The notes beneath the pieces are model-generated. The model worked only from the letters and a program-made list of their open reading frames with translations, was not told the DNA's origin and did no database searches. From Candidatus Bruticola sp. (GTDB lineage: Bacteria; Vulcanimicrobiota; Xenobia; Xenobiales; Xenobiaceae), in contig JBJEGD010000002.1 in NCBI GenBank assembly GCA_051874735.1, positions 64,001 through 128,000 of the forward strand: 64,000 nucleotides of DNA, in the 5' to 3' direction. Shown in pieces: positions 2,946 to 13,804 of this stretch. The position numbers and the translations under genes are program-made. The stretch's first letter is position 1. The number at the start of each line of letters is the position of its first letter.

Positions 2946-5900
2946 ATGGTGAAGCACCGAGAGGGTTTTATGTACGAACCAGCCACAAGTGGCAACAACA
3001 TATACGGACAGGATCCGCTCCCGCAGGACGTTTCAGAATCTATCCCTGCTGTGAAAAAACAAGAAGCGATCGTGCCCCAGGGGGATCGTTCTTTACCTGC
3101 GCAATATTCTGCTGGCCCTCTCTCTTCCGCTTCAGCTTTAAATAAGCAGAGAACAGCACCGCCAGCTCCGAACTTAAGAGGCCGCAATATTGCAGCAAGT
3201 TCCTCAAGTTCAGATCAGCGCCACACTACAAATAGAGTTACTGGCGGTGCAGTAAATTCAAATAGTGCTGTTCCAACACCTATGAGATCAAACGAATCAC
3301 TCGCAAGCAGATCTGCCTCCGGATCAGCTGCTCCAGCGGCTGCTTCCCTTATAGGGGGACACAGAACTGAACAGGTTGTAAATCCACGACTGCGCTATAC
3401 CAGCCAATCAAGGCGCAATGCCCCACTTATTGAAGAGGCTTCATCTGCGTCTAAAGCAGCTTTGGCTATGGAAAAACCAAGCTTGGCCCCCTCAGCTAAG
3501 TTACAGGCCGACGCTACCTCTTTACCTTACAAAACGCTCAACACACAGCATCCAACTCATTTGGAGTCTCCACTTCACACTTCTCACCCATCTCAGCCAA
3601 CGAATAGCTCAGGTCCCTATAAACCTGGGGGTACTATTTCTACAGGGCTCCCACAGCCGCAGCGAGCGGAAGAACCTTCCCCTTATGACCGAACGGCTAA
3701 AGTTTATCAAACCAGAACAATAGCTTCTTTAGGTAATTCTAGTACTATACGCAGCGACAGCGCGACTCCAGCCGCAGTTCAAACACGCCAATCCCAGGCG
3801 CCCACTTTAGGACAAAGTACTAATCAGCCTAGAAGTCAAGCGGCCACTCTGGGCGGCACTATGCAGCCTTATCAGCCCAGGACAGCTGCTTCTTCGGGAA
3901 GTACTACTTCTATACATAGCGGCAGCGCGGCTCCAGCTGCAGCTCAAGCACGCCAGCCCCAGGCACCCACTCTGGGACAAAGTACTACTCAATCTAAAAT
4001 CCAAGCGGCCACTCTGGGTAGCACTATGCAGCCTTATCAACCTAGGACGGCTGCTTCTTTGGGAAGTACTACTTCTATGCGTAGCGGCAGCGCGACTCCA
4101 ACCGCAGCTCAAACACGCCAAACCCAGGCGCCCACTTTAGGACAAAGTACTAATCAGCCTAGAAATCAGGCGGCCACTCTGGGCAGCACTATGCAGCCTT
4201 ATCAACCTAGGACGGCTGCTTCTTTAGGCAACACTGCTTCTATACGCAGCGACAGCGCGGCTCCAGCTGCAGCTCAAGCACGCCAGCCCCAGGCACCCAC
4301 TCTGGGACAAAGTACTACTCAATCTAAAATCCAAGCGGCCACTCTGGGTAGCACTATGCAGCCTTATCAACCTAGGACGGCTGCTTCTTTGGGAAGTACT
4401 ACTTCTATGCGTAGCGGCAGCGCGACTCCAACCGCAGCTCAAACACGCCAAACCCAGGCGCCCACTTTAGGACAAAGTACTAATCAGCCTAGAAATCAGG
4501 CGGCCACTCTGGGCAGCACTATGCAGCCTTATCAGCCCAGGACGGCTGCTTCTTTGGGAAGTACTACTTCTATACGCAGCAGCAGCGCGGCTCCAGCTGC
4601 AGCTCAAACACGACAACCCCAGGCGCCCACTTTAGGACAAAGTACTACTCAATCTAAAAGCCAAGCAGCCACTCTGGGCAGCACTATGCAGCCCTATCAG
4701 CCCAGGACAGCTGCTTCTTTGGAAAGTACTACTTCTATACGCAGCGGCAGCGCGGCTCCAGCTGCAGCTCAAACACGCCAGCCCCAAGCGGCTACTTTAA
4801 AACAAAGTTCAACTCCGTCTCAAAATCAGGCTTTATCTTCCCGTAGCACGGTACAACCTTCTATTCCTGTATCCTCAGCTTTATCTGATAAACCTTCGTC
4901 CGTAAACTCTGTGGCTGCTTCCGGAAGGCACTTCAAAGAGAAACAAGCTACAGACACATCTGCTCCTTATCAGCCAGGTAAAGCGGCCAATTATCCTTCC
5001 CTGGAAGAAGCTAAACAGCGCGATACGTTCCGAACAGCAGAACATACAGAAAAAACAAGCGAAACCAAACCCAAGCGCCGCCCCAACGCGGCCTCTCAAC
5101 CTTTAATTCAAGCCAATACCTCCAAAGGTTCTTCTAAACATAGCCAGGGAGGACGCGTAATTCCGACTATTTCAGCTACTCCTCCCAAAGAATTTATTAA
5201 AGAAAAAGAACGCAAAGCTTTGTTAGCTCAGCGCGTGGTCGAATATAATAATATTCAGGCTTACTATGCTAGCTATATGGCTAACTACGAGCAGCAGCAA
5301 AATAGGTTGGAACAGCTGATAAAAGATGAGACTATCTCAACCATAGAGAGAGCTCACCTGTTTAAACAACAATCAGAACTTTATCAAAAACAACGTGCTC
5401 TGTTCCAGTTACAGACAAATCTGTATGAGTACGTAAGCAACAAGAACTTCGATCCTAAAGAAGAGCTGCCGTTTACTCCTCTCGATGAAGAAACTAATAA
5501 ACCTAAAAATTTTAACAAATCTCCAGAAGAACATTGGTCAGCCATTCTCGGTTCTGAAATAAAAAAACAGACACGCAAACAACGCAAAAACGAAAGCAAA
5601 CAGCCTTATAAAATTACCAAGCGCCATGAATCAGTTCTGGAAAGACGCCAACGGCGCATGGAAGAGCTCAAGCGTTGGGAAAAAGAATGGAGTCAGTACT
5701 ATAAAAAAGATCCTTTCTGGCGCAAACAAAGGTACTGGAAAGCTCTGTTTTTTATAATCGGAGTAACCTTACTGATAGGCCTTATAAACATAAATAACGT
5801 TATGAAATGGTTTGCTTCCGATTATGAGCGACCGCTAGTACCAATTGAAACTAATGAGCTGAAAACTAACTACAAAGAGGGATACATATCTGTACACAAG

Positions 5901-6593
5901 GGCGATGTCGTACCTGTTGACAGTCGATTAGTTTCTTATTCCTCTCCATACAATGTTATGGCTATGCGCAACGGAGGAAACCTTCGTATAGATAAATATA
6001 CCGATGTTACTATTGAAAACTTGAAAACTAACAAAAATGGGAACTTCCACAGCAGCTTTTATCTTAAGCAGGGGCGTGTTTGCGCCTACAGCGAACCTGA
6101 CAGCTTAGTTTTTATGCTTACTCCTCAAGTGCGTATTAGTCCAGTTAACGATCAGCCTACACTATATGCAGCAGTGTTGAAAACGGATGGACAAGGTAAA
6201 CAATTTACTCTGCTAAGCGTGTACCGGGGTATGTGCGTGGTAGGTTACAATACCGGCACCTTACAGACAGTTAGAGTAAGTGCCGGCCAGTCACTAAAAA
6301 GTTACTCTTCCAGTTTAGGCCAGCCTGACAGTCTGCGCCAGCCTGATAAATGGACAAAATGGAATTATGGCTGGACTGATACAAAAAATTATGTATCTCC
6401 TCTGGCTTCTCCTAAATCTAAAGATGATATCGACGAAATCGAAGACGACACTCCTGATAGCGCCGTAGAAGCTTTTACTAAAAAACAGGCGCTTGACAAA
6501 CAGAAGGAAGCAGCCGCCAAGGTAGAAGCTGCTAAAAAGAGTCGAAAGGCAAAAGCAAAACCGAAATCTAAGAATAAAACTAATAAAAAATAA
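2946..6593 (+). CDS. Large single-pass membrane protein: S/T/Q/A-rich repeat region, coiled coil, TM helix, C-terminal FecR-like domain
   Basis: 1215-aa ORF (start may be ATG 2970). TM segment ALFFIIGVTLLIGLINI at about 5742-5792. Downstream pattern KGDVV...NGGNLRIDKYTDVTI...LKQGRV...TPQVRI...LSVYRGMCVV...VRVSAGQ resembles FecR. Confidence 0.7.
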   Translation: MVKHREGFMYEPATSGNNIYGQDPLPQDVSESIPAVKKQEAIVPQGDRSLPAQYSAGPLSSASALNKQRTAPPAPNLRGRNIAASSSSSDQRHTTNRVTGGAVNSNSAVPTPMRSNESLASRSASGSAAPAAASLIGGHRTEQVVNPRLRYTSQSRRNAPLIEEASSASKAALAMEKPSLAPSAKLQADATSLPYKTLNTQHPTHLESPLHTSHPSQPTNSSGPYKPGGTISTGLPQPQRAEEPSPYDRTAKVYQTRTIASLGNSSTIRSDSATPAAVQTRQSQAPTLGQSTNQPRSQAATLGGTMQPYQPRTAASSGSTTSIHSGSAAPAAAQARQPQAPTLGQSTTQSKIQAATLGSTMQPYQPRTAASLGSTTSMRSGSATPTAAQTRQTQAPTLGQSTNQPRNQAATLGSTMQPYQPRTAASLGNTASIRSDSAAPAAAQARQPQAPTLGQSTTQSKIQAATLGSTMQPYQPRTAASLGSTTSMRSGSATPTAAQTRQTQAPTLGQSTNQPRNQAATLGSTMQPYQPRTAASLGSTTSIRSSSAAPAAAQTRQPQAPTLGQSTTQSKSQAATLGSTMQPYQPRTAASLESTTSIRSGSAAPAAAQTRQPQAATLKQSSTPSQNQALSSRSTVQPSIPVSSALSDKPSSVNSVAASGRHFKEKQATDTSAPYQPGKAANYPSLEEAKQRDTFRTAEHTEKTSETKPKRRPNAASQPLIQANTSKGSSKHSQGGRVIPTISATPPKEFIKEKERKALLAQRVVEYNNIQAYYASYMANYEQQQNRLEQLIKDETISTIERAHLFKQQSELYQKQRALFQLQTNLYEYVSNKNFDPKEELPFTPLDEETNKPKNFNKSPEEHWSAILGSEIKKQTRKQRKNESKQPYKITKRHESVLERRQRRMEELKRWEKEWSQYYKKDPFWRKQRYWKALFFIIGVTLLIGLININNVMKWFASDYERPLVPIETNELKTNYKEGYISVHKGDVVPVDSRLVSYSSPYNVMAMRNGGNLRIDKYTDVTIENLKTNKNGNFHSSFYLKQGRVCAYSEPDSLVFMLTPQVRISPVNDQPTLYAAVLKTDGQGKQFTLLSVYRGMCVVGYNTGTLQTVRVSAGQSLKSYSSSLGQPDSLRQPDKWTKWNYGWTDTKNYVSPLASPKSKDDIDEIEDDTPDSAVEAFTKKQALDKQKEAAAKVEAAKKSRKAKAKPKSKNKTNKK
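3705..4810 (+). repeat. In-frame tandem repeat, 165-bp (55-aa) unit, about 6.7 copies, with 330-bp higher-order A/B periodicity
   Basis: ATGCAGCC recurs at 3861, 4026, 4191, 4356, 4521 and 4686 (spacing exactly 165). 3923-4204 is identical to 4253-4534 (282 bp). Confidence 0.97.
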
Positions 6594-6646: not shown

Positions 6647-7036
6647 ATGAGTGAACATCACCATAGCGAACATCACCATTCAAAGGAAGAGTGCTATCAT
6701 CATGAGCACCACGAACTCCGCATTCCAGCAGAATTAAGCGCTAAAGCTTCTGAAGTTTTCATAAATAAGCACGGAGGACGCGGAACGGCTCTAAATTTTC
6801 CCTGCCGTTTTCCTATTAAAGTATTTGGCAAAGCTGAAGAAGATTTTTTAGCTTACGCTCACAAACTGGTGCAAAAACATGTGCCTGAGCTTTCTCTCGA
6901 TAAATGCCGCTTAACGCACAGCAGTAAAGGGCGCTACGTATCCGTCACTATCGATATTATTGCTTCCAGCCGCGAACAGCTCGACGCCATTTATGCTGAT
7001 CTAAAAAATGATGAGCGAATAGCCGCAATGTTGTAA
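6647..7036 (+). CDS. ybeD: YbeD/DUF493 family protein with His-rich N-terminal extension
   Basis: LNFPCRFPIKVFG...SSKGRYVSVTI...SREQLDAIY matches YbeD; N-terminus MSEHHHSEHHHSKEECYHHEHHE. Confidence 0.85.
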   Translation: MSEHHHSEHHHSKEECYHHEHHELRIPAELSAKASEVFINKHGGRGTALNFPCRFPIKVFGKAEEDFLAYAHKLVQKHVPELSLDKCRLTHSSKGRYVSVTIDIIASSREQLDAIYADLKNDERIAAML

Positions 7037-7712: not shown

Positions 7713-7883
7713 TTTACAAAAGTTATCATGCATAGGTTTTCGCTCTCCCCTTCTGCTTAATAGGATTTTGACTACAAGCCACAAAAGAAGGGGTGAAGTC
7801 TTTACTCTCACAAGCCAGGATCATCTAAATTTGCATCTTGATATAGAGAGCGGCATCTTTTGCCCAACGACCTGGAGGTTCTC

Positions 7884-8924
7884 TTGAAAACGCACCGCAA
7901 TTGGTTGACAGCCACCGTACTCCTAACGGCTCTTCTGATGTTAGTGAATATTTCAGTAAGCGAAGCCAACGAAGAAACAGATCGCATCAGCGCTATTTCG
8001 AGAGCCTCAAAATCGGTAGTTTCTGTGCGTACTTACCGTCAGAACCGCACTAAACCAGGAATTGGCTCCGGAGTCATTATTAATTCCAACGGCTACATTT
8101 TGACTAATGCCCACGTTGTCAAAGGCGGCAAAAAAATTAGAGTGCAGCTAAAGAATAAAAAAACCTACGAAGCCAATATTCATAAAATGGCCGGAGATAA
8201 AGATTTAGCTATTATCAAAATAGATGGTCAAGATTTCCCAGCGGCCAGAATTGGTGATTCCGACAACCTAAAAGTAGGACAAACAGTTATTGCTATAGGC
8301 GATCCGCTCGGTTTTACCGGTACAGTAACCCAAGGAATGATTAGCGGATTAGGGCGCAATATTGAAACTAAGGGTATAAAATATACCAATTTAATTCAAA
8401 CTGACGCCGCCATCAACCCCGGTTCTTCCGGAGGAGCCCTTTTAAATTCACGCGGCGAATTGATTGGTATAAACGCTTTAGTTTATACCGGTCCATCCAA
8501 TGGTTACGACAAAGCTCAAGGACTGGGCTTTGCCATTCCTATTAAAAATGCTTTTAGTGTGGCTCAACAATTAATGGATAGTCCTGCTGATACCAATTAC
8601 ATCGCTGAGAGTGACAACATGCCTTCAGGAACACGTCCTTGGTTAGGCCTTAGCGGTGCAACTTTGACCACAGAAAAGGCTCAAGATTTTAATATAAAGA
8701 TTAGCAGCGGCGTATTTGTTACCCAAGTAGTTGATGGTTCTCCAGCAGGCAGGGCTAATATAAAACCTGGTGATACGGTCAGCGCTGTAAATAAGGTCAC
8801 CGTAAGCTCTGTAGGAGCTATGGTTCGCGAGCTTAATAAGTATAGTGCTGGTGACCGCATTAAACTTACTGTATGGCGCAACAACAAAAAGTTTATAGTC
8901 TCGATAACTCTTGACGCCCAATAA
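7884..8924 (+). CDS. htrA: HtrA/DegP-family serine protease with one PDZ domain
   Basis: GSGVII...ILTNAHVV, DLAIIK, IQTDAAINPGSSGGAL, followed by PDZ. N-terminal signal or anchor. TTG start at 7884 after GGAGG. Confidence 0.92.
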   Translation: MKTHRNWLTATVLLTALLMLVNISVSEANEETDRISAISRASKSVVSVRTYRQNRTKPGIGSGVIINSNGYILTNAHVVKGGKKIRVQLKNKKTYEANIHKMAGDKDLAIIKIDGQDFPAARIGDSDNLKVGQTVIAIGDPLGFTGTVTQGMISGLGRNIETKGIKYTNLIQTDAAINPGSSGGALLNSRGELIGINALVYTGPSNGYDKAQGLGFAIPIKNAFSVAQQLMDSPADTNYIAESDNMPSGTRPWLGLSGATLTTEKAQDFNIKISSGVFVTQVVDGSPAGRANIKPGDTVSAVNKVTVSSVGAMVRELNKYSAGDRIKLTVWRNNKKFIVSITLDAQ

Positions 8925-8942
8925 ATAGTTCTGAATACTTTT

Positions 8943-9000
8943 ATATTTAAGCCCGCTGTTAATTTACCTGAACAGGTAATTATCCAGCGGGCTTAAATAT
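8943..9000. terminator. Long inverted repeat between convergent genes (probable bidirectional terminator)
   Basis: ATATTTAAGCCCGCTG ... CAGCGGGCTTAAATAT with an inner TTACCTG/CAGGTAA stem. Confidence 0.75.
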
Positions 9001-9019
9001 TGCAGGGCAGTATTTTAGA

Positions 9020-10021
9020 CTACTCTGCAAAATAGCGTCGACCGCCCAAAAAGTGATATTTTGAAACGTTGCTAACCTTATTTAAATTACTAAGGCTGAC
9101 ACCTTTCTTGCCGGAAGCATCAAGAAAACTGCCGTCTCCGACATAAAACCCTACATGACTTACATGCTCTTCATCGGCGCCAAAGAAAACTAAATCACCA
9201 GGTTCAAGCTCATCCTTGCTAAGTGGCATACCTACCAAAAACTGCTGATCTGCATCACGCGGTACTATCAAACCGTGCAAGCGGCAGCATACATAGACTA
9301 AACCGGAGCAATCGATACCGTGACAGCTTAATCCGCCCCAAAGGTAAGCAGTTCCCTTGAATCGGAAGGCGGTAAGCAATACCTCCTCAGCCTTAGTGGG
9401 CAGCACCTGTCGGCTGCCGTTTTCATAGGGTATATAGCCACTTTGATTAGAACCAGGCCAACTAACTACCCAAAATTTTTGTCCTCCAGCCCCAGTCTGA
9501 CAAACTTGACTGCCTAAAGACAGCAAAGTAGTCGCGAAAACTCGCCCCAATCTGGCAGCAGATTGATCAGGCTTCACATAAACGAACGATTGAGGACTAA
9601 TAATCATGACGCTGTCAGCTGAGCGACTATCTATGGACCACTCCCTCAAACAAGGCTGGGCACAGTAGCCTAAATTCAAACTTTGACCAGCGAAACCGAC
9701 TTGCTCCGTTAAAAAACTTCCGTTAATCCAACCAGGATACCCCTCAGGCTCACGATACTGATTAGGTACTACCACCTGCTTCCAGTCCCCAGATTCAGAA
9801 ACAGATTTTACATAGACAGGTTCACCTAAAAGAACTTGAGTCAATCTCTCAGAGTCATCATAAATATCAGCAAACACACTGACAACTGGCACCGATACAA
9901 CATATAAGGATTCAGCTTCATTATCAGCCATGGTCTTCTCCTGGCAGCATAGAATAAGCAAAAAGCACCAAACAAGCTGCTTAATGCGGCTTTTGAATAT
10001 TTCCTTATAGATTAATCTCAA
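9020..10021 (-). CDS. SH3b + NlpC/P60 (C40) peptidoglycan peptidase, YkfC-like
   Basis: RLTQVLLGE...GYPGWI (SH3-like); YLWGG...GIDCSGL, PRDADQQ, PGDLVFF, SHVGFY; N-terminal hydrophobic signal. Confidence 0.9.
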   Translation of the reverse strand: MRLIYKEIFKSRIKQLVWCFLLILCCQEKTMADNEAESLYVVSVPVVSVFADIYDDSERLTQVLLGEPVYVKSVSESGDWKQVVVPNQYREPEGYPGWINGSFLTEQVGFAGQSLNLGYCAQPCLREWSIDSRSADSVMIISPQSFVYVKPDQSAARLGRVFATTLLSLGSQVCQTGAGGQKFWVVSWPGSNQSGYIPYENGSRQVLPTKAEEVLLTAFRFKGTAYLWGGLSCHGIDCSGLVYVCCRLHGLIVPRDADQQFLVGMPLSKDELEPGDLVFFGADEEHVSHVGFYVGDGSFLDASGKKGVSLSNLNKVSNVSKYHFLGGRRYFAE

Positions 10022-11224
10022 CTACAGACCCACTTTTTGACGAGCCGGAATTTTAAGTTTATCTCCAGGCACGATATGATCGTAATAAGGAGCAGGCAAT
10101 TTATTGAATTTTCCGAGAGCTTTGCATACCTTAGGATCGGTTGTCGAATAATATTTTTCAGCAATGCTAGAAATAGTCTCTCCGGATTGCACGTTATGAA
10201 TAATAACTTTCGAACCACTGGGAGCCGCTTTAACTGAACTTTCTTCTTTTTGGGCAAGTTTACTCTCTGTAGTTTTGACCGTATTCGCTTTCTCTTCCGA
10301 CACAGCTATAGGTTCAGCCGCTGGCGTACTCAAAAGCCCCAATTCCTTGTCAAGAACGCCTACTGCCTCCAACTGCCCTTCAATTACCTTAACTCTCTTT
10401 TCTACTGAGTCAATCTGTTGAGATATTTGAATTTGATTAGCCAAAACCTCATGTTGATCGACTTTAGCTACCGGCGCCGGACGCAACAACTGAACCATCA
10501 GACAAAGGCCGATTAAAACGAGAATAATATAATCGATAGGGCGTACAACGGGATTGCGCAGCATACGCTGAAACTTATCTATACTGCGTTCTAAATAACG
10601 CTCGTCAAGATAATCTTCTTGACGAGTGGGTTCACGTGATACAATAGTGGAATTAACCGCCGTTTTCCCGTAAATTCTGAAACCGCCACTATTCTGCAAT
10701 TCACCATCACGCCATAAATAGAAACTGCGTTCTCCAATAACAGGATCAACTATATAAATTACTTGAGACTGCTTGGGAAAAAATTTTTGGTGAATTTCTT
10801 TCTCTAAATCAGTTAAGCTGCTGCCAGTTCCAGGATGAGAATGGAACCAACCAACTACACTCATGCCGGGATGCTTTTTAGAAGCTTGCGCAAAGGCTCT
10901 TTTCCAGACAACTTCAGTAAAGTTATCACTTTGAGGTTTAACCTCAACAGCCTCATCTATTTTTATCCAAGAATTATCCTTAACATGACTGCCCAAAAGC
11001 AAACCTGCTTGAGCCTGGGCCGTATTATTCAAAGCTAATTTATTTAAAGTAGTAAATAGCTGATAACGCAAATAAATACGGGAATTACCAACTTTTTCTG
11101 TGCCGACTTGGAAATAATCTCCAGGTGCAGCCGCTGCATTAACCAAACCTATCCCCTCTTTAGATAATAAAAGATCTTCTCCCAACGTTTCCTCCAAATA
11201 AAAGGCCCTTCTCTTAGATACCAC
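10022..11224 (-). CDS. JAB/MPN (Mov34) domain + TM helix + coiled coil + C-terminal LysM protein
   Basis: AGLLLG...VVGWFHSHPG...YIVDPV (JAB); TM YIILVLIGLCLMVQLL; LysM HNVQSGETISSIAEKYY...IVPGDKLKIP. Confidence 0.85.
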   Translation of the reverse strand: MVSKRRAFYLEETLGEDLLLSKEGIGLVNAAAAPGDYFQVGTEKVGNSRIYLRYQLFTTLNKLALNNTAQAQAGLLLGSHVKDNSWIKIDEAVEVKPQSDNFTEVVWKRAFAQASKKHPGMSVVGWFHSHPGTGSSLTDLEKEIHQKFFPKQSQVIYIVDPVIGERSFYLWRDGELQNSGGFRIYGKTAVNSTIVSREPTRQEDYLDERYLERSIDKFQRMLRNPVVRPIDYIILVLIGLCLMVQLLRPAPVAKVDQHEVLANQIQISQQIDSVEKRVKVIEGQLEAVGVLDKELGLLSTPAAEPIAVSEEKANTVKTTESKLAQKEESSVKAAPSGSKVIIHNVQSGETISSIAEKYYSTTDPKVCKALGKFNKLPAPYYDHIVPGDKLKIPARQKVGL

Positions 11225-11305
11225 GTAGAGAAAGGCCTGAGCCTTAAGCTGTATTTATATACTACCTTCAGAGAATAATCTGCAGTCGCTCCCCCTTCCT
11301 TATCT

Positions 11306-12487
11306 CTAGATCATTGCCTCTTCGGTATCTTTATTGAAAAGATGTATCTTGCGGGTATCAATAGCTAAGTTAGCAGTATCTCCAACCTTAGCATCGGTAT
11401 GAGAATCAACTCGAGCCACCAATTCTTCCTCACCTAAACGAATATGCAGAGAGACTTCAGACCCCATAGGCTCATACACTTCAACCTTGGCGGAGATGGG
11501 CACTAAGAACTCGCTTTCTCGGGCGAACTTAGGATCGTGAATATCCTCCGGCCTAATACCGAAAGTACACTCAGCTCCAGCGAACTCCTTTATACGCCCA
11601 GCCAAACGCTCTGGTATTTCTAAACTGAAACCTTTGCCCTTAATAACAACATTTTCGCCGACCGCTTCCAACTTCACTTCTAAGAAATTCATAGAAGGAG
11701 TACCAATAAAACCAGCCACATATTTATTAGCAGGATGTTCGTACATTTCCAAGGGGGCGGCGGCCTGTTGAATTATCCCTTTGTGCATGAGAACAATACG
11801 ATCGCCTAAAGTCATGGCTTCAGTCTGATCGTGAGTTACATAAATAGTTGTAACTCCCAAAGTATGGTGTAATTTCTGCAGTTCAGCTCTCATCTGAACG
11901 CGAAGCTTGGCATCTAAGTTGGAGAGAGGTTCATCCATAAGGAATACTTGAGGACGGCGTACAATAGCGCGTCCCATAGCCACACGTTGACGCTGCCCAC
12001 CAGAAAGCTCTTTAGGCTTACGCAGCAGCAAATGCTTAATATCTAAAAGCTCGGCAGCATTATTTACTAATTTTTTTATTTCCTCTTCCGCATATTTGCG
12101 CTGACGAAGACCAAAAGCCATATTGTCGTAAACACTAAAATGAGGATACAAAGCATAGCTCTGGAAGACCATGGCAATATCTCGATCTTTAGGGGATACA
12201 TCATTGACCTTGCGATCACCGATATAAATAGATCCGCTAGTAATCTCTTCTAGACCTGCTACCATACGCAAAGTAGTAGACTTACCACAACCGGAGGGAC
12301 CTACTAAAACTAAAAACTCGCCGTCTTTAATATCTAGAGAGATATTTTTAACTACATGAACCTGACTGGGAAGGCGGCTAGGCTTCCAAAACTGATACCA
12401 AGCCTGATGCTCCGGGTTTGGACTCCAACCATCATAGATCTTATTTACTTCGACAAGACGAACACTACCCACAACTAAATACCCCAA
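11306..12487 (-). CDS. Sugar ABC transporter ATP-binding subunit (MalK/MsmX/UgpC family), no permease nearby
   Basis: GPSGCGKST, LSGGQRQRVAMGR, MDEPLSNLDAKLR, YVTHDQ, GIRPE, TOBE tail. Real start is probably GTG at 12472. Confidence 0.95.
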   Translation of the reverse strand: MGYLVVGSVRLVEVNKIYDGWSPNPEHQAWYQFWKPSRLPSQVHVVKNISLDIKDGEFLVLVGPSGCGKSTTLRMVAGLEEITSGSIYIGDRKVNDVSPKDRDIAMVFQSYALYPHFSVYDNMAFGLRQRKYAEEEIKKLVNNAAELLDIKHLLLRKPKELSGGQRQRVAMGRAIVRRPQVFLMDEPLSNLDAKLRVQMRAELQKLHHTLGVTTIYVTHDQTEAMTLGDRIVLMHKGIIQQAAAPLEMYEHPANKYVAGFIGTPSMNFLEVKLEAVGENVVIKGKGFSLEIPERLAGRIKEFAGAECTFGIRPEDIHDPKFARESEFLVPISAKVEVYEPMGSEVSLHIRLGEEELVARVDSHTDAKVGDTANLAIDTRKIHLFNKDTEEAMI

Positions 12488-12640
12488 ATTATCGCTGATT
12501 GTGCACCCTTAAGCACTGCTAGCCATGCTGAAAATGCGGTGTTACTACTTCGGGTGTTCTTCTATTTTTCTTATTCAGCTCCTACTCAGAAACATTAATA
12601 TCACAAATTGACAGTACTATCATAATATAGAAACAACTGT

Positions 12641-13252
12641 TCAATCGTTTTTGCCATCTTGTATCCGCTGCAGCGATTCAAGAATGCGGTGACACTCCTG
12701 CTCTAAATTAGAATATATGCGTTTAGCATAATCATCAGCGTCATCGCAGACGTCTTTACTGTAAGCGTTGGCCTCATGCCGCACTTTGTCAGCAGTAGTA
12801 GTGGCTGATTCACGAACCTTAGCCGCCTCAGCTTCAGCCTCATGTACAAGACGATTGGCTTTTTCTTCGGCCTCATGTATGAGACGATTGGCTTTTTCTT
12901 TAGTCTCTTTAAGAATGCGTTCCGATTCATCTTGAGCTTGAATGACTACTTGGCTCTCTTGCACCATCTCATAAGCTTCAGCTTTAGCAGTCCGCATCGT
13001 TTCTCTAGCTCTGTCTTCGGCTTCTCTAATTGTCTTCTGAGCTTCTTTGACAGCCTCTTCTTTTATCTGGTCAGCTCTGCCAACAATATCCTTAGCCTGC
13101 ATAATTTCTTCAGGTAAATTTGATCTGGCTTCAGTTATAAGTTTTAGAAAAGCCTCTTTATTGATTACAGAGCAGTTGGCCCATACTAAAGGAAGAGGCT
13201 TGCTGTCCTCAACAATTTTTTCTAAGCGAGTTAAAATTTTATATATATCCAT
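12641..13252 (-). CDS. Coiled-coil protein of the family commonly found downstream of coaD (DivIVA/ATP-synthase-b-like)
   Basis: MDIYKILTRLEKIVEDSKPLPL...LPEEIMQA...ADDYA pattern, Ala/Glu-rich coil, position after coaD. Confidence 0.7.
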   Translation of the reverse strand: MDIYKILTRLEKIVEDSKPLPLVWANCSVINKEAFLKLITEARSNLPEEIMQAKDIVGRADQIKEEAVKEAQKTIREAEDRARETMRTAKAEAYEMVQESQVVIQAQDESERILKETKEKANRLIHEAEEKANRLVHEAEAEAAKVRESATTTADKVRHEANAYSKDVCDDADDYAKRIYSNLEQECHRILESLQRIQDGKND

Positions 13253-13303
13253 ATATATTTAACCCTCCGTAACTACTCTATATAGCAATTAACTATCAAA
13301 AAA

Positions 13304-13804
13304 CTAATGTAGCTGATTAAATTTCGCAGCTAAATATCTACTAACTGCAGCAGGAACCATACGGGAGATATCTCCTCCTAAAGAGGCTATCTCGCGCACG
13401 CAGCTAGAACTTACAAAAATGTGCTCAGGAGAGCTAATAAAAAAGATCGTGTCAATTTCAGGGGCTAGCTGCCTATTAATTAAAGCCATCTTGAATTCAG
13501 CGGCGAAATCGGAACCATCCCGTAAGCCGCGAACAATGAAAGATGCTTGGCTATGACGCACAAAATCGATCAGTAAACCGGAAAAAGTATCTACTTTAAC
13601 ATTATCCCAAGCTGCGACACTCAAACTAATCATCTCTTTTCTCTGTTCTAAACTAAAGAGAGGATTTTTGTTAGGATTGCAGACCACCGCTACGATCAGT
13701 TCATCTACCGAACGGGCAGCTCTGCCTATAATATCAAGATGACCGTTAGTGAGAGGATCAAAACTGCCAGCATAAACAGCCCGCCGCACTTTTAAATTAT
13801 TCAT
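13304..13804 (-). CDS. coaD: Phosphopantetheine adenylyltransferase
   Basis: YAGSFDPLTNGHLDII, IVRGLR, VSSSCVREIA. Confidence 0.96.
   Translation of the reverse strand: MNNLKVRRAVYAGSFDPLTNGHLDIIGRAARSVDELIVAVVCNPNKNPLFSLEQRKEMISLSVAAWDNVKVDTFSGLLIDFVRHSQASFIVRGLRDGSDFAAEFKMALINRQLAPEIDTIFFISSPEHIFVSSSCVREIASLGGDISRMVPAAVSRYLAAKFNQLH

Follow-up and report, generated by a model that had tools for sequence, protein, structure and literature searches.

The window analysed here is a stretch of 64,000 nucleotides (nt) from Candidatus Bruticola sp. (assembly GCA_051874735.1, contig JBJEGD010000002.1, positions 64,001 to 128,000). On its minus strand, a gene for a membrane-spanning protein with an MPN (JAB) domain and a C-terminal LysM domain, called MPN-LysM below, is followed directly by a gene for an NlpC/P60 peptidase. 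By comparison with its homologues, MPN-LysM is a lineage-specific, orphaned variant of a family that is known but uncharacterised, and the window copy is most likely disabled as an enzyme. The features of the two genes are as follows (residue numbers refer to the listed product of 400 amino acids, aa; AlphaFold2 confidence is given as the predicted local distance difference test, pLDDT).

10022-11224, minus strand: MPN-LysM open reading frame (ORF), 400 aa as listed, listed start GTG
10655-11137, minus strand: MPN/JAB domain, predicted cytoplasmic, residues ~30-190 (AlphaFold2, pLDDT ~90; PF01398)
11012-11014, minus strand: codon of Ala71, in the column of the JAMM catalytic Glu (alignments)
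10802-10843, minus strand: rest of the JAMM motif, H128, H130, T138 (Ser position) and E141 (Asp position) (alignments)
10556-10618, minus strand: conserved juxtamembrane helix, predicted cytoplasmic, residues 203-223, with an ERYLERS..K.Q motif (AlphaFold2 and 29-sequence alignment)
10484-10540, minus strand: single transmembrane (TM) helix, residues 229-247 (AlphaFold2 helix; hydropathy 2.28 over residues 225-253)
10343-10456, minus strand: long helix, predicted extracytoplasmic, residues 257-294, which may form a coiled coil (AlphaFold2)
10214-10339, minus strand: disordered low-complexity linker, residues 296-337 (AlphaFold2 pLDDT <50)
10046-10204, minus strand: LysM domain, residues 341-393 (Pfam, 27.6 bits; AlphaFold2 pLDDT 82-91)
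9020-10021, minus strand: SH3b-SH3b-NlpC/P60 peptidase of the YkfC (dipeptidyl-peptidase VI) type, 333 aa, predicted to be secreted (Pfam, PDB match)

Translation of MPN-LysM probably begins not at the listed GTG but at the TTG of codon 14 (11183-11185), which would give a protein of 387 aa. This start is preferred because a GGAGG motif lies 5 nt before the TTG and because relatives carry a stop codon upstream of that point: five orthologues from the same genus have a stop at codon 9, and relatives start at the equivalent of codon 14.

Pfam matches above cut-off were obtained for JAB (PF01398, 30 bits, cut-off 22.5, residues 65-148) and for LysM (PF01476, 27.6 bits, cut-off 20.9, residues 343-393), whereas the score for Prok-JAB was under its cut-off. 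Both domains had been named in an earlier note on this DNA, which had also given the correct coordinates for the GWFHSHPG motif (residues 125-132, 10829-10852). In an AlphaFold2 model built on 15 homologues, the TM helix fell close to the position noted before (about 10485-10532), and the LysM domain showed a beta-alpha-alpha-beta fold (strand 341-344, helices 351-359 and 364-373, strand 389-392). Residues D292, L285 and E282 of the long helix were conserved in the clade alignment. The linker was the fastest-evolving part of the protein, with a nonsynonymous divergence (dN) of 0.37 vs. 0.02-0.09 elsewhere. When the model was compared with the PDB using Foldseek, the top ranks were Rpn11, CSN5, AMSH, BRCC36 and the Caldiarchaeum Rpn11 homologue (CsRpn11), with a probability of 1.00 for Rpn11, CSN5 and CsRpn11 and target-normalised TM-scores of up to 0.73. 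The best solved relative by sequence was also CsRpn11 (6fjv, E = 1.3e-5, phmmer against the PDB). No signal peptide was found on MPN-LysM, positive charge was higher N-terminal of the TM helix, and the LysM domain lies C-terminal of it. Because of the TM helix and this charge distribution, the LysM domain is predicted to lie outside the membrane and the MPN domain inside, a topology that the earlier note had proposed and with which these observations fit.

In the passages of PMC300881 that treat the JAMM/MPN+ motif, it is given as EXnH[ST]HX7SXXD; zinc is bound by the two His and the Asp, and the Glu, which holds a water ligand, is the proposed acid-base catalyst. In the window copy, phmmer alignments to CsRpn11 and Rpn11 and alignments of 15, 105 and 29 sequences all placed Ala71, flanked by Gln70 and Gln72, in the Glu column. 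The Glu had previously been read as Gln; its absence was confirmed, and the residue in its place was found to be Ala. Neither Gln70 nor Gln72 was accepted as the Glu equivalent, since every alignment has Ala71 in the column. Both His zinc ligands of the HxH element were kept (H128 and H130), and the Ser at +8 and the Asp at +11 after the second His were replaced by T138 and E141, in agreement with the earlier reading. An alternative register in the phmmer alignment to CsRpn11 would make D139 a zinc ligand; it was rejected because position 139 is variable in the clade and E141 is conserved (at least 90% in the clade alignment). Alignment to active JAMM proteins, the check that had been suggested, thus gave no intact catalytic Glu or Asp in the window copy.

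Homologous loci were collected by scanning one genome per species for the pattern GWFH[ST]H. This resulted in 79 loci, 22 of them from the clade of the window copy (the orphan clade) and 57 others. The Glu column was occupied by Glu in all 22 orphan-clade loci and in 82/82 outgroup JAB domains. The orphan-clade loci read E-H-H-[TS]-E in 22/22 cases; the outgroup read E-H-H-D in 82/82 and had the Ser in 79/82. Ala at the Glu column was seen only in the window copy and in its nearest relative, G019 (the same protein as P0002, 82% identical). This change from Glu to Ala is recent. Thr and Glu in place of Ser and Asp, fixed as [TS] and E throughout the clade, are a conservative clade-wide variant and not decay. 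The JAMM site described earlier as degenerate is therefore defective in the window copy through the loss of the Glu, but not through the T/E substitutions. In the 29-sequence clade alignment, the complete motif E-H-H-[ST]-E was present in 22 sequences and missing in seven: two had the Ala form, three were without the Glu and the first His, and two had other changes.

The MPN domain of the window copy is most likely a pseudoenzyme, inactive as a peptidase, because the acid-base Glu is replaced by Ala. It may keep its zinc through H128, H130 and E141. In Csn5, according to the passage of PMC300881 on the mutant, the substitution E56A abolished activity and left assembly intact.

The JAB domain of the Glu-less copies is nevertheless under purifying selection and not decaying. 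Between the two Glu-less species its dN/dS ratio (dS, synonymous divergence) was ~0.05, a rough value given that dS was saturated. In other families of the phylum, proteins of 211-212 aa were found that are collinear with residues 195-393 of MPN-LysM and comprise the juxtamembrane helix, the TM helix, the long helix and LysM, with no JAB domain. These proteins and the motif losses in 7/29 clade members, which follow several separate patterns, were counted as support for catalysis being dispensable in the clade. Examples without JAB are L093:3949-4587, L094:3806-4441 and L095:3765-4400, each directly after genes for an amino-acid kinase and a PALP enzyme. A search of the ESM Atlas with residues 195-400 gave no new lead: all clusters returned were of LysM or JAB-LysM proteins, with scores of at most 0.85.

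The proteins of the window neighbourhood, together with E1, E2, ubiquitin-like (Ubl), RING and FHA proteins from three loci, were compared with all 79 loci. Among the 57 loci outside the orphan clade, E1 or E2 was found within ~6 kb in 42 and both in 35, and none contained an NlpC/P60 homologue. Neither E1 nor E2 was found at any of the 22 orphan-clade loci. A Pfam run on the 107 ORFs of ten of the non-orphan loci showed a YukD-like Ubl, a ThiF E1, a UQ_con E2, one to four Prok-RING_1 proteins and at least one JAB gene (two in several loci), often with a trypsin-like protease, an FHA/YscD-like protein, or RDD or M48 proteins in addition. Such operons were present in Acidobacteriota, Armatimonadota, Bacillota, Chloroflexota and Ignavibacteriota. 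JAB and LysM were joined in one protein in the operon loci L023, L034, L035, L039, L042, L046 and L047, with the canonical motif E..HxH..S..D. These comparisons trace the MPN domain of the window copy to the Rpn11-like deubiquitinases of bacterial YukD-Ubl/E1/E2/Prok-RING operons. They also assign the JAB-TM-LysM architecture to predicted bacterial relatives of the Caldiarchaeum ubiquitin operon.

The YukD-type Ubl/E1/E2/RING operons of bacteria are predicted systems attributed to a 2011 study by Burroughs, Iyer and Aravind, and no experimental studies of the YukD-type Ubl/E1/E2/Prok-RING operons were found in the literature searched. As to the view of the earlier note that the locus might represent an undescribed system, the protein does not come from an undescribed family, since its relatives are the JAB-LysM proteins of E1-E2-RING-Ubl operons and since "bacterial lysM-associated JAMM sequences" are named in PMC6043591, in the legend of its Figure 1, there only as left out of a cluster map. 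No paper on a JAB-TM-LysM protein or on a JAB-LysM/NlpC-P60 operon was found in full-text searches, a coverage that leaves out supplements and Burroughs et al. 2011. The paper on the Bil/Bub systems (PMC11601603) contained no mention of LysM or of a transmembrane segment. As a separate observation, L028, L035, L039, L046, L054, L056 and others are large membrane-associated ubiquitin-like operons occurring in many phyla. They encode a YukD-Ubl, E1, E2, two JAB proteins and as many as four Prok-RING proteins, of which some are fused to RDD, TPR or CD225. An M48 peptidase, an FHA/YscD-like protein and a trypsin-like protease that lacks PDZ are also encoded.

The 22 closest loci ranged from 73% down to 32% identity in MPN-LysM, and all were Xenobia, UBP9 or Vulcanimicrobiota-like by synteny. 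In a quick maximum-likelihood tree of 101 JAB domains, 21 locus rows and the window row formed one clade on a long stem (SH-like approximate likelihood ratio test, SH-aLRT, 100). Its nearest neighbours in the tree were JAB-LysM proteins of Limnochordales, also without E1 or E2 nearby; the node joining the two had a weak support of 84, with long branches meeting there. The bins of L002, L012, L016 and L017 are labelled Riflebacteria or Burkholderiales and yet show the full synteny of the Xenobia type (UDPGP-CoaD-DivIVA-like-ATPase-MPN-LysM-NlpC/P60), and their taxon labels look wrong.

The phylum was sampled with 151 genomes, including 39 other genomes of the order of the window (Xenobia-type Vulcanimicrobiota). 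A full-length MPN-LysM orthologue was present in all 39, nearly always as a single copy. The UQ_con E2 was found in 5/151 genomes and, within the order, in only 1/39 (G060), in which a complete YukD-E1-JAB-FHA-RING-E2 operon (L096) and the unit of ATPase, MPN-LysM and NlpC/P60 genes (L097) lie on separate contigs. Prok-RING_1 was rejected as a marker of ubiquitin systems, as it matched 24/151 genomes, mostly in unrelated long ORFs, and E2 was used instead. The assembly to which the window belongs (2.47 Mb, 92.4% complete) had no match to UQ_con, Prok-RING_1 or YukD, and tblastn of operon E1, E2, Ubl and FHA proteins against it returned nothing at E ≤ 1e-3. The absence of E1, E2 and Ubl genes, stated before for the surroundings of the gene, thus extends to this assembly. 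Its only JAB gene is that of MPN-LysM, and its only ThiF-family gene, located beside an alanine racemase gene, scored best as TcdA. A defence island or mobile element was rejected as a reading, the gene being single-copy and present in all sampled genomes of the order. The distribution argues that MPN-LysM is a single-copy core gene of the order, orphaned from the ubiquitin-like machinery. The only operon-like trace in the genome was a weak tblastn match to the RING-RDD protein of L035 at G000:C2:43468-43746, outside the window (E = 8e-5, 30% identity over 106 aa), probably a generic zinc ribbon.

The junction of the two genes reads ...CTG TAG|TTG AGA..., with the MPN-LysM stop (10022-10024) abutting the TTG start of the peptidase gene (10019-10021), as the earlier note had described. 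The NlpC/P60 match of the peptidase (PF00877) was 81 bits, and its SH3b matches in Pfam were weak and under their cut-offs. The catalytic domain spans residues 223-316 (9074-9355) and contains Cys238 (9308-9310). The best PDB match was YkfC of Bacillus cereus (3h41, E = 4.8e-29, residues 60-331), followed by two dipeptidyl-peptidase VI structures. Cys238 and His289 were invariant in 18 peptidase orthologues, all of which had a hydrophobic N-terminus; the window peptidase itself starts with a hydrophobic, signal-like segment. The bond cleaved is presumably that between gamma-D-Glu and the diamino acid, as in YkfC. Since L009 and L016 end too early, 20 of the 22 loci were informative. The NlpC/P60 gene was located downstream on the same strand in 18 of these, at down to 32% identity of MPN-LysM, and G019 had the same gene order as the window. 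With intergenic distances based on longest-ORF start calls, 14 loci had a gap of 0, -4, -1 or 1-6 nt. The gap never exceeded 30 nt, and in one locus the called genes overlapped by 56 nt. The pairing of MPN-LysM with a YkfC-type peptidase was thus upheld by the synteny survey that had been named as its check: the adjacency is conserved across the clade, and the spacing points to translational coupling of the two genes in a conserved gene order.

A third gene precedes the pair on the same strand, and a further recurrent neighbour lies on the other side of the pair.

11306-12487, minus strand: UgpC/MalK-like (CUT1-type) ABC ATPase with OB_MalK and TOBE_2 (Pfam ABC_tran, OB_MalK, TOBE_2; NCBIfam UgpC 470 bits, cut-off 432)
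7860-8924, plus strand: HtrA/DegP-type serine protease with PDZ, convergent with the peptidase gene; recurrent neighbour

The ATPase gene lies 81 nt upstream of the listed MPN-LysM start. It was found upstream of MPN-LysM in 22/22 orphan-clade loci; by longest-ORF start calls, the distance was -89 to 151 nt in 21 of them and 680 nt in L013. The three-gene core (ATPase, MPN-LysM, NlpC/P60) was kept from 73% to 32% identity of MPN-LysM, whereas the outer flanks changed. An HtrA homologue was found within the locus in 17 of the 22. In loci that branch more deeply, the next genes of the string encode a 153-aa unknown protein, a GT2 glycosyltransferase, HtrA and a 286-aa unknown protein, and a PilZ protein is located upstream. 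The neighbourhood of MPN-LysM, as judged from these genes, is envelope-themed.

We propose that a former deubiquitinase, in the window copy without catalytic activity, has been co-opted by an envelope operon as an adaptor that spans the membrane and binds the wall, and we regard this reading as evenly balanced between being right and being wrong. MPN-LysM would be a bitopic protein with the former deubiquitinase domain inside the cell, a TM helix followed by the long helix, and a peptidoglycan-binding LysM domain outside. The adaptor, probably dimeric, would be anchored to the wall by LysM and, on the outer side of the membrane, would position or control the NlpC/P60 peptidase co-expressed with it. 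The MPN domain and the conserved juxtamembrane helix would link the peptidase to a cytoplasmic partner, and the MPN domain of the window copy would work by binding rather than by cleavage.

Several observations weigh against the adaptor reading. The homologues without JAB do not adjoin an NlpC/P60 gene. The peptidase gene is inverted, though adjacent, in L008, and in L006, a genome of the same genus, it is replaced by an unrelated 375-aa ORF with no Pfam match (L006:7312-8439). UgpC/MalK-type ATPases normally energise sugar importers, and the genome encodes two further UgpC/MalK paralogues, 40% identical, so the ATPase may be a bystander. The operon status is based on spacing; a consensus scan for promoters and terminators over 8800-13400 gave no more sites than shuffled sequences did. 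Physical contact of MPN-LysM with the peptidase or the ATPase is something we infer; a complex prediction with the ectodomain (residues 250-400) and the mature peptidase (residues 34-333) scored 0.00 and counts neither for nor against contact. Relative to the TM-helix region, the dN of the JAB domain was 1.3 in the Glu-less pair vs. 0.36-0.43 in Glu-bearing pairs, and this approximately three-fold increase fits partial relaxation of selection. Finally, the complete modified motif is kept by 22/29 clade members over deep divergence. Selection for catalysis therefore probably persists in most lineages, and a role as an adaptor only may not describe the clade.

That same conservation, together with E141 and the purifying selection on the JAB domain, is what an active enzyme would predict. 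The MPN domain could still be a metallopeptidase clade-wide, with another residue acting as the base in the window copy, and could cleave a substrate other than ubiquitin on the cytoplasmic face (for instance the tail of a protein, or an isopeptide-like bond in a precursor of the wall or in a recycling peptide) while NlpC/P60 acts on the outer face. The exchange of Asp for Glu need not abolish metal binding, as the third zinc ligand of thermolysin is a Glu (mentioned in a passage of PMC300881). However, the acid-base position here is Ala, and the equivalent E56A, in the account cited above, kills Csn5; no Ubl, E1 or E2 was found in the 92.4%-complete assembly, several lineages are also without the first His, and homologues without JAB exist. 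An active peptidase is likely for much of the clade and unlikely for the window copy, and as an explanation for the locus we consider it quite improbable. A cell-wall sensor, as the earlier note proposed, would account for the bitopic architecture, in which a ligand-binding domain lies outside and a fold that binds proteins lies inside, for the conserved juxtamembrane helix and for the co-encoded peptidase. LysM would detect peptidoglycan or muropeptides released by NlpC/P60 and would signal via the TM helix to the dead MPN domain. Much as an anti-sigma factor does, that domain would then sequester a regulator in the cytoplasm or set it free. In the loci compared, however, no gene for a regulator, sigma factor or DNA-binding protein is conserved beside MPN-LysM, and the disordered linker of 40 residues between the long helix and LysM is ill-suited to pass on a conformational signal. 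No result of the analysis favours signalling, and we find the sensor just as improbable as the active enzyme.

The adjacency of the genes could also be without functional meaning, the order being inherited and not selected. MPN-LysM would then have a role of its own (for example in division or envelope organisation), NlpC/P60 would be an independent peptidase of murein-peptide recycling, and the ATPase a shared energiser of sugar import. The exceptions at L006 and L008 are in keeping with this, as are the amino-acid-kinase and PALP genes that adjoin the JAB-less homologues instead, and within the family the flanking housekeeping genes (CoaD, UDPGP, DivIVA-like and HtrA) are also syntenic. The three-gene core, by contrast, outlasts the changes of its outer flanks between 73% and 32% identity, and stop and start codons abut or overlap in most loci; we consider mere inheritance unlikely, but less so than the sensor or the active enzyme. 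The adaptor reading has a bolder extension, in which the former deubiquitinase domain is the cytoplasmic input of a trans-envelope module controlling a peptidoglycan peptidase. The ATPase or another partner would act on the MPN domain and the juxtamembrane helix, the signal would travel via the TM and coiled helices, and the LysM arm would position or activate NlpC/P60, an FtsEX-like logic built from unrelated parts and universal in the order. We hold this extension to be the most doubtful of the possibilities considered.

Among known systems, FtsEX controls wall hydrolases in the combinations FtsEX-EnvC-amidase, FtsEX-RipC and FtsEX-CwlO. The window unit would resemble these by analogy, as a triad of ABC ATPase, membrane protein with an extracytoplasmic helix and wall hydrolase. 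It differs in that its ATPase is of the UgpC/MalK sugar-import type and not FtsE, and in that MPN-LysM crosses the membrane with one TM helix and does not have the FtsX fold; matches to the FtsX family were absent. In LytE, LytF, CwlS and Listeria p60, LysM targeting and an NlpC/P60 catalytic domain acting on stem peptides are combined in one secreted protein. The LytE structure 8i2e was among the PDB matches of the window peptidase; in the window, however, LysM belongs to a second protein, which is anchored in the membrane, and the peptidase itself has YkfC-type SH3b domains. The scaffold subunits Rpn8 and CSN6 (MPN-) have kept the MPN fold for binding after the loss of catalysis. Eukaryotic MPN- proteins pair with an active MPN+ partner, whereas the window genome has a single JAB gene, so any MPN pairing would be with itself.

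The JAB-(TM)-LysM proteins of the ubiquitin-like operons share the domain order JAB, TM, LysM with the window protein, and their JAB domains are 22-33% identical to it. They have the canonical E..HxH..S..D and are set among E1, E2, RING and Ubl genes, whereas the window protein has A..HxH..T..E, a clade-specific juxtamembrane helix, an NlpC/P60 partner gene and no ubiquitin-like genes in its genome. CsRpn11 of Caldiarchaeum subterraneum (6FJU/6FJV; PMC6043591), the closest solved structure by sequence and also near in fold (target-normalised TM-score 0.73), is a soluble, active ubiquitin-processing enzyme with the Glu and Asp present and with neither TM helix nor LysM. Csn5 E56A (PMC300881) is like the proposed state of the window copy, a dead MPN domain that still assembles. 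The only described association of JAB with NlpC/P60 is their fusion in tail assembly protein K (TAPK) of lambdoid phages (PMC1779556). TAPK is one soluble polypeptide of a phage tail module with the Ubl TAPI; at the window locus JAB and NlpC/P60 belong to two proteins and are predicted to lie on either side of the membrane, and neither a Ubl gene nor phage genes accompany them.

The locus offers a clear bacterial case of an enzyme of a ubiquitin system outliving its system. MPN-LysM has been kept in every sampled genome of an order from which, with one exception, E2 is missing, and it has gained a fixed wall-peptidase partner gene; in some lineages, including that of the window, catalytic residues have been lost while selection continues. 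A physical link to the peptidase would represent a new means of coupling the hydrolysis of the wall to the cytoplasm, in an uncultured phylum that has barely been studied. It would also supply a natural series of MPN domains, some active and some dead, with which to ask what membrane JAB proteins bind.

Other genes of the window were observed around this unit. Between the CoaD and ATPase genes lies a gene for a 203-aa DivIVA-like coiled-coil protein (12641-13252, minus strand), syntenic within the family and not found in the deeper loci. On the plus strand, a YbeD/DUF493 (HP0495-family) homologue with an unusual His-rich N-terminal extension, HHHSEHHHS...HHEHH (6647-7036), precedes the genes for MgtC/SapB and HtrA; the family shows synteny of all three. 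Upstream of it, 2946-6593 (plus strand) is an ORF of 1215 aa with no Pfam family. It contains, at 3723-4808, 6.6 tandem copies of a 165-bp (55-aa) unit rich in Ser, Thr, Gln, Ala and Pro, has a hydrophobic stretch around residue 970 and ends in a tail rich in Lys.

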